29,804 nucleotides of DNA from a virus (taxonomy: Duplodnaviria > Heunggongvirae > Uroviricota > Caudoviricetes), in IMG/VR virus record IMGVR_UViG_2639762982_000016, positions 1 through 29,804 of that record. The stretch is one strand, 5' to 3'. Position 1 is the stretch's first letter, and each line of letters begins with the position of its first letter. Made by a program: the position numbers and the translations under genes. Shown here one piece after another: positions 1 through 1,848 of this stretch. Under the pieces are notes generated by a model, which was given only the letters and a program-made list of their open reading frames with translations, searched no databases and had not been told where the DNA came from.

Positions 1-102
1 AAGGGAGACTGTCATTCCCGGTTCAAAACTCTGCTGAACAATAGCGATCTTTTCCTGTGTAGTACGCCGTCTGCGTTTCTCCGGTCCTAAGACATCAATC
101 AT
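1..102 (-). CDS. insC: IS2 OrfA (InsC) transposase regulator, N-terminal 34 codons only (truncated by window edge)
   Basis: Minus-strand translation from ATG at 102-100 gives [34 protein letters not shown], matching the InsC N-terminus as I recall it. Confidence 0.8.
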
Positions 103-193
103 CTGCTCTCCAATGACTAGTCTAAAAACTAGTATTAAGACTATCACTTAAATAAGTGATATTGGTTGTCTGGAGATTCAGGGGGCCAGTCTA
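1..193 (-). mobile_element. IS2: IS2 insertion sequence, left terminal ~193 bp (element continues beyond window start)
   Basis: Reverse complement of 118-193 reads TAGACTGGCCCCCTGAATCTCCAGACAACCAATATCACTTA...TAAGTGATAGTCTTAATACTAGTTTTTAGACT, which I recognise as the IS2 left end; it is followed by the InsC start. Identification is from memory of the IS2 sequence, not a search. Confidence 0.85.
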
Positions 194-1848
194 CCGTTCC
201 CCCAGTCCTCCTGTTGCGCCAGCTTCCATACGCTCCAGTCTGTGTCAGTAATCCCTTTGCTTTTCAGGATACGAAAATCAGAGTCATCGAGGCTACGAAG
301 GTCTGGTGTCCGTGACACTACTTCTCCCAGGCTTCCCATCATGGTTACGCCATAGGCGCGCTTGTGCGCATCTGACCATGCTGTAAGCCCACTGGCACGC
401 ATTACCGCCGTTGCCGCCCAACGAGACACTGACGGCCCCATATTATCCATCGCCCAGCGGTTAACGCTGCCAAGTAGAGATTCCATCGCCAGACCAGCGC
501 GGCGCGCCCGCGCAAGTTCTGTACGGTTCGTGGGGTCCATAGCTTCAAGCTGGTTGCGGAATAACTGGTTCATTGGAAGGTTGGTCACCTTCGCAGACAG
601 ATACATGGTTCCAAGATCAGAGAACGATGATAGCAACGCGGATCCGAGTCTGCTGGCAACCAGCCAGTTGCGGATATTGTCAGACCATCGCGCGATGTGC
701 GGATTCGCTACAGGCTGTGTCTTTCCGGAAATAAAGTTGTACAGATTCTCTGTGTTGTTCGCCAGCCGCTCGACTTTACCGGTTTTACTCGGGTTAGCTG
801 TTGCCGTTTCTGCCTTAACCTGATCAAGAAGGGAGCGGAAAACATGATCGGGGTTTGGACCATATGTTTCCACCAGAGCAATATCTTTACTGATACCTTC
901 CAGGTGACCGACCATGATTTCCCATAGAGAGCGATCACCATAAAGTTGTTGATATTGGAGATAGGAATCTGCATCTTTGAAATGTATCTGTCGTGATGCA
1001 TTACCACGGTTAGCACGTGCGCCGGAAATTCGCATTCCGGTATCAGTAAGCTTATTCAGCCCACCAGTAGCGATCGTGTTATAAGCCTCTCCAAGAAATG
1101 CAGACAACTCGGCATCATTCATCAGTTGTCCATCGGCTCGGATATAATATTTGCGATCCAGCTTACCTATAACATCGCTAACCCACTTATCCTTTGATAC
1201 CGCCCCAACCTTTTCCATAGAATGATGTTGAGGGATCCCCCAGTTTTCGAGATAGCCAATGTCCCCACCAGCATCATTAAACCGGCGGCGCAGTAGATCT
1301 GTCACTTCTCTCCACGCCTTAGCACCTTTTCTTGCTTTAGCATTGCCAGTATTTTGCCCTCGCATTTCATATACCAGGTCACGCACGCCAGCTTCATCTT
1401 CAAACAGGCCAAAAAAGCGAGGATCAACTGCTTCAAATGCCTCTTGCAATTGACTCAATGCATAATCACGAGTGGCTTTTGTTCTGGACTCAACAGAGAG
1501 GAAATTCGATTTACCGTCTGCATTAAAAGCAATAGTACGGTTAAGAGCGCCGAGTTTCCCATCAGCCCCTTGATAGCTATTGATAAATTTATCCAATCTC
1601 TGACGTGCGGCTATAGTGAGGGCCACACGACGTTTCTTTAATGCCGATTCTCGCTGTAATTCTTCAGATGCCAATTGTGCTGCACGATATAGCCGCTCTG
1701 ATTCGGAAAGTTGTCTCCACGACATCGGGTCATCACGAGCAATGGAGCGCATATTTCGATAAATGCGGTCTTCAATGTTCTGTATTTCTCGCGCCGTTAA
1801 CGTGCGCTGCGCCGCCTGCTGGACCGCTTGTATACATTCCTGTCTCAT
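178..1848 (-). CDS. Internal virion / ejection-like protein (556 aa as read); last codons and stop are supplied by the IS2 end, so the native C-terminus is probably lost
   Basis: ORF track; last gene of the minus-strand virion operon. The final residues RLAP and the stop are encoded by IS2 sequence (AGA CTG GCC CCC TGA). No recognisable motifs; role inferred from position. Confidence 0.5.
   Translation of the reverse strand: MRQECIQAVQQAAQRTLTAREIQNIEDRIYRNMRSIARDDPMSWRQLSESERLYRAAQLASEELQRESALKKRRVALTIAARQRLDKFINSYQGADGKLGALNRTIAFNADGKSNFLSVESRTKATRDYALSQLQEAFEAVDPRFFGLFEDEAGVRDLVYEMRGQNTGNAKARKGAKAWREVTDLLRRRFNDAGGDIGYLENWGIPQHHSMEKVGAVSKDKWVSDVIGKLDRKYYIRADGQLMNDAELSAFLGEAYNTIATGGLNKLTDTGMRISGARANRGNASRQIHFKDADSYLQYQQLYGDRSLWEIMVGHLEGISKDIALVETYGPNPDHVFRSLLDQVKAETATANPSKTGKVERLANNTENLYNFISGKTQPVANPHIARWSDNIRNWLVASRLGSALLSSFSDLGTMYLSAKVTNLPMNQLFRNQLEAMDPTNRTELARARRAGLAMESLLGSVNRWAMDNMGPSVSRWAATAVMRASGLTAWSDAHKRAYGVTMMGSLGEVVSRTPDLRSLDDSDFRILKSKGITDTDWSVWKLAQQEDWGNGRLAP

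Follow-up and report, generated by a model that had tools for sequence, protein, structure and literature searches.

An IS2 end inside a gp17-like virion gene

The stretch of DNA analyzed here, IMGVR_UViG_2639762982_000016 (29,804 nucleotides [nt] at full length, referred to as the window), is prophage sequence in which a homolog of the epsilon15 virion gene gp17 runs directly into the end of an insertion sequence (IS), IS2. Position 1 of the window is position 3 of scaffold JPQX01000023.1, and JPQX is Escherichia coli O157:K88 734/3, a porcine enterotoxigenic E. coli (ETEC) that was short-read sequenced together with O157 SvETEC (JPPP) (PMC4384309). In this porcine ETEC O157 lineage (O157:K88 734/3 and O157 SvETEC), the prophage adjoins guaA. 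The truncated gp17 homolog, a virion structural or internal protein gene of PHROG 684, occupies positions 178 to 1848 on the minus strand and encodes 552 native residues followed by RLAP and a TGA stop, giving a product of 556 amino acids (aa). Scaffold JPQX01000023.1, which belongs to assembly GCA_000835055.1, encodes exactly this 556-aa product, and the gene lies 179 nt from the scaffold end. Positions 1 to 193, likewise on the minus strand, are assigned to the left end of a 1331-bp IS2 variant (IS3 family), and positions 194 to 198 are a 5-bp target-site duplication, CCGTT on the plus strand and AACGG on the gene strand (gene nt 1651 to 1655), with a second copy beside the IS2 right end on scaffold 1 of SvETEC.

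The IS2 assignment was made by alignment. The left inverted repeat (TAGACTGG...) has its outer end exactly at position 193. The minus strand of positions 1 to 193 starts TAGACTGGCCCCCTGAATCTCCAGACAACC..., and an ATG at position 102 opens IS2 orfA, whose first 34 codons run from 102 to 1; the remaining 1138 bp of the element are outside the window, where the scaffold ends. The reverse complement of this segment aligns without gaps to positions 1 to 192 of canonical IS2 with 95.3% identity, beginning at IS2 position 1 (TAGACTGGCCCCCTGAATC...), and the similarity ends exactly at 193. The canonical reference was a RefSeq-annotated 1331-bp copy from E. coli FDAARGOS_1301 that is flanked by a different 5-bp duplication, CTGAC. 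A perfect match (100%) to all 193 nt was obtained with the left end of a 1331-bp element that is complete in E. coli CV839-06, where it is flanked by ATTAT and annotated as an "IS3 family transposase" with a programmed frameshift. Compared over its 1331 bp with canonical IS2, the CV839-06 element is 95.7% identical and differs by 57 substitutions, without indels. Matches to at least 80% of the 193 nt occur in 7106 records from 4702 of the 5426 complete E. coli genomes; 410 of the complete-genome records have a best match of at least 99% identity. Judged by these alignments, positions 1 to 193 belong to a common IS2 variant and form its left end. The element has the orientation of the phage gene and is co-directional with the late operon.

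On the gene strand, the 556-aa open reading frame (ORF) ends ...GAC TGG GGG AAC GG|T AGA CTG GCC CCC TGA. The third base of Gly552 comes from IS2, as do the R-L-A-P codons and the TGA that follow, and translation enters the IS by 15 nt. The initial annotation, made by a model from the sequence alone, had already recognized an IS2 end at 193 that supplies RLAP and the stop, and both the alignment to annotated IS2 and the reading of the gene strand bear this out. Residues 1 to 552 are identical at all 552 positions to an 824-aa protein of E. coli YF-1 (WP_112027454.1), and the similarity ends at the IS boundary. The native gene has 824 codons, and the insertion, at codon 552, removes the C-terminal 272 aa (33%). 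The initial annotation had put the insertion at the 3' end of the gene, which understates how much is cut off.

The intact 824-aa protein covers profile positions 1 to 831 of the 840 in PHROG 684 ("virion structural protein"), and it aligns end to end with epsilon15 gp17 (28% identity, E value of 7e-109), reaching the last residue. Both results agree with the earlier description of the gene as one for a virion protein of the internal or ejection type. The product encoded in the window, retaining native residues 1 to 552 only, falls short of the full profile and is a truncated member of the family, a pseudogene fragment. At least 80% of the gene is present in 316 complete E. coli genomes, and among 58 full-coverage complete-genome records that were sampled, all but one were uninterrupted 2475-nt matches. 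Among 133 phage records, 115 likewise match at least 80% of the 824 aa; the intact homologs in both sets are about 824 aa long.

These data also bear on whether the 556-aa protein could be a natural short form, with the insertion being harmless. PHROGs does contain separate N-terminal (phrog_23925, residues 1 to 466) and C-terminal (phrog_26678, residues 504 to 823) families, and split annotations exist. However, all of the phage homologs listed, close and distant, reach the final residues of the 824-aa query, including those of O157 typing phage 9, SPN1S, BcepC6B (gp17), Vibrio VP5-like phages, and Pelagibacter phages. None ends at the position where the window copy stops, which the initial annotation had named as an observation that would speak against an insertion; the homologs continue for 272 more residues. 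Moreover, the C-terminal part is the best conserved: identity to epsilon15 gp17 is 37.5% in the lost part versus 28.1% in the retained part. We consider a natural short form highly improbable. The break itself falls at a variable linker, where epsilon15 gp17 carries a large insertion.

The lengths of full-length homologs were taken from annotated genomes, phage records, and PHROGs; a homology search with the C-terminal 272 aa gave only proteins of 42 to 475 aa, mostly partial genes on short contigs. A Pfam search gave no family for the gp15-, gp16-, or gp17-like proteins, and a PDB sequence search gave nothing at an E value of ≤1. Hydropathy peaks in the lost region are only moderate (1.26 to 1.36, 19-residue Kyte-Doolittle window), and we make no claim of membrane helices there. 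One passage in the literature calls gp17 an internal core protein of epsilon15 (PMC5850374), and another, citing Guichard et al. 2013, places it in the packaging/injection device (PMC12391199).

The right junction and the genes beyond it

Scaffold 23 (JPQX01000023.1) breaks 195 nt into the IS2 repeat, leaving only 2 nt between its end and the start of the window. The window shows only one junction because the scaffold ends inside the repeat, which is a matter of assembly and not of biology, and the downstream genes are on another scaffold because the short-read assembler failed to bridge that repeat. A simple insertion predicted, before the partner scaffold was found, that it would carry the IS2 right end, then AACGG, then TAATAATACG... 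The search for that partner used six guessed remnant products, that is, two alleles with three starts each, including a fusion ORF from the IS2 right end. Only the 262-aa form of one allele starting at M563 (MRIPDSAVKHLGEPERV...) was in the protein collection, as KIQ43010.1 and KIQ48459.1 ("IY33_02680, E. coli"), GenBank accessions of the same vintage. The best place for this remnant was 283 nt from the end of JPPP01000001.1, which is scaffold 1 of SvETEC.

The end of that scaffold reads ...GGGGCAAATCCA|AACGG|TAATAATACGATG..., as predicted, or in a longer reading ...GTTAAGTGATAACAGGTGTCTGGAAATATAGGGGCAAATCCA|AACGG|TAATAATACGATGCTGACACCGG... Its first 247 nt correspond to IS2 positions 1085 to 1331, with 96.0% identity to canonical IS2 and 100% identity to the CV839-06 variant. 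The 193-nt left end in the window and the 247-nt right end in SvETEC are each identical, then, to one and the same complete 1331-bp copy. AACGG stands at both the left junction, in the window, and the right junction, in SvETEC. In coordinates of the intact YF-1 prophage, the phage DNA of the window reaches 35739 and the SvETEC partner begins at 35735, an overlap of 5 bp. Past the junction, the SvETEC scaffold completes the gene and carries small ORFs, a gene of AntA/BRO type, and a tailspike of 587 aa whose N-terminal 228 residues are 75 to 80% identical to the tailspikes of TL-2011b and phiV10. The tailspike is followed by two holins, a GH19 endolysin, and a DUF2514 spanin, and then by the host genes yfgI, yfgH, yfgG, and pdeF. 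From the tailspike through host yfgI/yfgH/pdeF, this right arm and the intact YF-1 prophage are collinear.

We read the locus as a simple transposition of an IS2 variant, with a 5-bp duplication, into the gp17-like gene of a Uetakevirus-type prophage, with no phage DNA lost, and we give this reading a probability of roughly 0.87. A simple transposition is preferred over a deletion or rearrangement because the right junction has the same 5 bp, the very next base of the gene, and all of the downstream genes. The initial annotation had suggested looking beyond the other IS2 end for the rest of the gene and a 5-bp duplication, and comparing the locus with intact related prophages; the sister strain supplied both of the former, and YF-1 carries an uninterrupted 824-aa gene. 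Its suggestion that the native C terminus and the genes after it were displaced or lost, perhaps by an IS-mediated deletion, does not hold, given that the remnant, the tailspike, the lysis genes, and host yfgI all follow the right junction. It had also called the prophage probably defective or rearranged. The first of these probably applies, as discussed below, while rearrangement is contradicted by the AACGG at the right junction and by the collinear downstream genes.

The contrary explanation is that IS2 marks the breakpoint of a deletion or rearrangement through which the 3' part of the gene, the tailspike, and the lysis genes were lost or moved. The window alone, with its single junction, would allow this, and IS-rich genomes do recombine between IS copies. 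However, the SvETEC scaffold end joins the IS2 right end to the same 5 bp, the next gene base, the downstream genes, and the host flank, and in both strains the prophage was found on two adjoining scaffolds with the same size of 43.9 kb (PMC4384309). In that report, the TL-2011b-like phage region K5 of 734/3 comprises scaffolds 2 and 23, and region S4 of SvETEC, 99% identical to K5, comprises scaffolds 1 and 11 (PMC4384309). A deletion or rearrangement is already largely refuted and is very unlikely. As far as the two junctions can tell, nothing was lost, deleted, or rearranged.

An assembly artifact would be another way to obtain a lone junction: the phage gene and IS2 would have been joined by misassembly at a scaffold end, and the gene would be intact in the cell. 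The junction does lie 195 nt from a scaffold end in a short-read draft from 2015. Yet both junctions exist with a perfect 5-bp duplication, which an artifact would not create. In addition, the 556-aa product is encoded on four contigs, contigs in two unrelated later assemblies stop 1 nt before the same junction, and among the look-ups made no scaffold had an uninterrupted gene. An artifact is hardly credible.

Some points nevertheless weigh against a simple, inactivating transposition. The sequence of the right junction comes from SvETEC (JPPP), the sister strain, and not from the assembly of the window itself (734/3, JPQX). That 734/3 has the same right junction we infer from the published scaffold table (PMC4384309), the two KIQ accessions, and identical-contig counts (three samples, with one further similar place). 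The interior of this IS2 copy is unassembled, and its length and intactness are taken from the identical-ended copy elsewhere. A C-terminal piece could be expressed separately, either from a GTG that lies in frame within the IS2 right end or from the internal ATGs at M557 and M563. Finally, loss of infectivity is a prediction, and the C-terminal third has no Pfam or PDB relative.

Predicted consequences for the prophage

In the proposed course of events, an IS2 variant (IS3 family, 1331 bp) would have transposed into the gp17-like gene of the guaA-linked prophage, duplicating AACGG at gene nt 1651 to 1655 in a plain cut-and-insert event without loss of phage DNA. Translation would run 15 nt into the IS and stop, yielding a 556-aa product without its best-conserved C-terminal third, while the gene remnant, tailspike, lysis cassette, and right prophage end would remain just beyond the IS. 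The prophage should keep lysogeny and probably also excision, replication, packaging, and lysis. Its particles, however, should be noninfectious unless recombination or rare precise excision repairs the gene, because gp17-type virion proteins are assigned to the internal core or tail tube that serves DNA delivery and the lost part is the best-conserved third. Podophage ejection proteins in general are described as required for infectivity (PMC8954989). The prophage thus probably cannot make infectious particles, and the prediction is that this phiV10/TL-2011b-like prophage of the ETEC O157/sequence type 23 (ST23)-complex is unable to spread in that form.

The gene could instead be split and still functional, with the 556-aa product and a separately translated C-terminal fragment together replacing gp17 and the prophage remaining infectious. 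The candidate fragments are an ORF of 283 aa that starts at the GTG lying in frame in the IS2 right end and the GenBank-annotated 262-aa ORF. Indeed, an ORF that is open and in frame connects the IS2 right end with the remnant, the break falls in a variable linker, and the IS is co-directional with the late operon. Against this, no convincing ribosome-binding site was seen by eye before the GTG or ATG candidates, transcription must cross 1.3 kb of IS2, and the arrangement has no precedent in the gp17 family and is purely conjectural. We allow it only a slim chance, and a simple transposition that inactivates the gene remains the reading adopted here.

So understood, the event is ordinary insertional inactivation of a prophage gene by IS2, and it adds nothing to what is known of IS2 or of podophage ejection proteins. 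Its use lies mostly in a correction. K5 and S4 were both scored "Intact" by PHAST at 43.9 kb (PMC4384309, Table 1), with TL-2011b as the PHAST best match for the prophage region (PMC4384309). The prophage called intact carries a disrupted virion gene hidden at a scaffold break; PHAST scoring was blind to the IS2 disruption because the disruption sits exactly at that break. In draft genomes, therefore, a prophage scored "Intact" can still contain an IS insertion that went unseen for lying exactly at an assembly break. The IS2-gp17 junction is also a convenient clonal marker for the ETEC O157/ST23-complex lineage.

Prophage type and neighboring genes

The late genes are on the minus strand. In the order of transcription, they encode the small and large terminase subunits, portal, protease, major capsid protein, a Bbp16-like cement protein, capsid staple gp10, and the tail-tube proteins of 202 and 817 aa. 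The genes that precede the gp17-like gene encode, in order, proteins of 202 aa (gp11-like), 817 aa (gp12-like), 154 aa, 181 aa, 853 aa, and 600 aa. At the far end of the window are a repressor-like regulator and an integrase. The late-gene order matches the gp1-to-gp17 order of the epsilon15 record, and this order, with a homologous structural module, places the prophage among those of the Uetakevirus type (epsilon15/phiV10/TL-2011b-like). The gp17-like gene comes after the tail-tube and internal-protein genes in gp11-to-gp16 order and before the tailspike. By gene order, it is the last gene of the tail-tube/internal-protein block and not, as the initial annotation had it, the last virion gene, because the tailspike lies downstream of it (SvETEC scaffold 1 and YF-1).

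Directly upstream in the operon, the 600-aa protein at the epsilon15 gp16 position (1854 to 3656, minus strand; PHROG 1145) is apparently intact and has the same length in YF-1. The protein at the gp15 position (3653 to 6214, minus strand), 828 to 853 aa long depending on the start codon, is also apparently intact, and its residues from about 270 to 420 match transglycosylase-type PHROGs. The window encodes two small internal virion proteins, one of which, the 181-aa protein at 6139 to 6684 (minus strand), belongs to the T7 gp14 family (PF24072, 31.2 bits against a cutoff of 27) and marks the ejection-protein block that includes the disrupted gene. Compared with YF-1, none of the structural genes in the window other than the gp17-like gene looks broken.

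The window is collinear with the 38-kb YF-1 prophage from the integrase start codon (position 29804) to the IS junction, and only the early region is mosaic. Downstream of the 824-aa gene, YF-1 has a 46-aa ORF, a short stretch of morons (YafO toxin and BRO), the tailspike, an acyltransferase pseudogene, two holins, a GH19 endolysin, and a DUF2514 spanin, with host yfgI coming next. On the strand opposite the late genes, the window carries a tRNA-Arg gene (anticodon TCT; 15735 to 15811, plus strand) located between the genes for terminase and portal, and the YF-1 prophage has a tRNA-Arg gene at the same place. Positions 15997 to 16551 have no similarity to the YF-1 prophage and hold a 123-aa ORF (16010 to 16381, plus strand) that matches only the first 106 of the 239 positions of phrog_322. 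This ORF beside the tRNA gene may be a truncated or replaced moron gene.

Other disruptions of the gp17-like gene

A 111-nt sequence spanning the left junction was searched in the 5426 complete E. coli genomes, and no record covered at least 80% of it. Two contigs, from GCA_017052235.1 (L015:3095-3154) and GCA_054631555.1 (L016:3095-3154), end in ...GGGGGAACG, 1 nt before the IS2 junction of the window. The assemblies are unrelated, and their contig ends yield 551-aa "partial" proteins. Both probably carry the same IS2 allele, in which case the junction would mark a lineage that extends beyond the two published strains.

Further IS2 insertions were found in the same gene. A canonical-type IS2 right end abuts gene nt 1604 in the same orientation (SRR32476181, contig L009:1-112), and a variant IS2 left end abuts gene nt 1597 in the opposite orientation (ERZ28585564, contig L013:1-144). 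These are independent events, 47 to 54 nt upstream of the site in the window. In the complete genome of MFDS1019527 (L018:301-4111; NZ_CP169309.1, 1379229 to 1383039), IS2 splits the gene at about nt 470. Four independent IS2 events (at gene nt of about 470, 1597, 1604, and 1651, with two variants and both orientations) could suggest a regional target preference or selection in the lysogen, either of which would go beyond random decay; selection would knock out a DNA-delivery protein and keep the rest of the prophage (immunity, morons, and lysis). We regard such a preference or selection as rather unlikely. A hot spot at gene nt 1597 to 1655 was not adopted, in that three of the four events come from a look-up limited to disruptions just upstream of M563. 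The insertions at nt 1597 and 1604 were found by looking up the exact 262-aa remnant ORF, so that detection was biased, and the one unbiased case, the complete genome of MFDS1019527, lies elsewhere in the gene.

Other irregularities lie downstream of or beside the IS2 site. Three contigs from different sources (L006, L007, and L012) begin at gene nt 1685/1686, 30 to 35 nt downstream of the site, and a metagenome scaffold (L011:549-558) has an N-gap from gene nt 1651 to 1679. The shared break point at 1685/1686 could represent the edge of another repeat or a mosaic joint where related prophages meet within one genome. A 1-nt indel divides some copies of the gene into ORFs of 527 and 262 aa (L008:767-3240 and L010:647-3120), and protein P0001 looks like a frameshift at a GGGGG run (gene nt of about 1646 to 1650) beside the IS2 site. 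Such copies could reflect slippage or sequencing errors at the homopolymer. In the metagenome 3300076539 of the Joint Genome Institute (JGI), the contig L006:1-10791 has the lysis cassette directly followed by the integrase and early genes. This is a circular or excised phage form of a close relative and not a prophage, so relatives with an intact right arm are active in that sample.

Comparison with known systems

The element in the window shares with canonical IS2 its termini (TAGACTGG... and ...GGGGCAAATCCA), the 5-bp target duplication, and, as read in the identical-ended complete copy of CV839-06, a length of 1331 bp and a two-ORF transposase with a programmed frameshift. It differs in being a sequence variant that RefSeq labels only as "IS3 family transposase." An IS2 insertion reportedly causes spontaneous mutations of the phage P1 prophage, as Sengstag and Arber are said to have described in EMBO J in 1983. 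The likeness is that IS2 hops from the host genome into a resident prophage and inactivates a phage function; unlike the present prophage, P1 is maintained as a plasmid and has a regional hot spot that is well defined, and none is established for the gp17-like gene.

MFDS1019527 (NZ_CP169309.1) offers a closer parallel, with a canonical IS2 in the same gene and in the same orientation that leaves two partial pseudogene pieces in RefSeq. However, the site differs (gene nt of about 470 versus 1651), as does the IS2 variant, and the event is independent. The guaA-linked prophage of YF-1 (NZ_CP161809.1, 1306976 to 1344955) resembles that of the window in integration site and gene order, with 98 to 99% DNA identity over the structural module. 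In contrast, it has no IS2, its tailspike and moron region are different, and its early region is partly different.

The family to which the disrupted gene belongs is that of epsilon15 gp17, with members in phiV10, TL-2011b, SPN1S, and O157 typing phage 9. The intact allele is homologous to these from end to end and occupies the same position after gp11 to gp16, with identities of 28% to epsilon15 gp17, 93.8% to the SPN1S/SPN9TCW proteins, and 99.4% to the protein of E. coli O157 typing phage 9. Unlike all of these, the copy in the window stops at residue 552 of 824 and carries four residues encoded by the IS.

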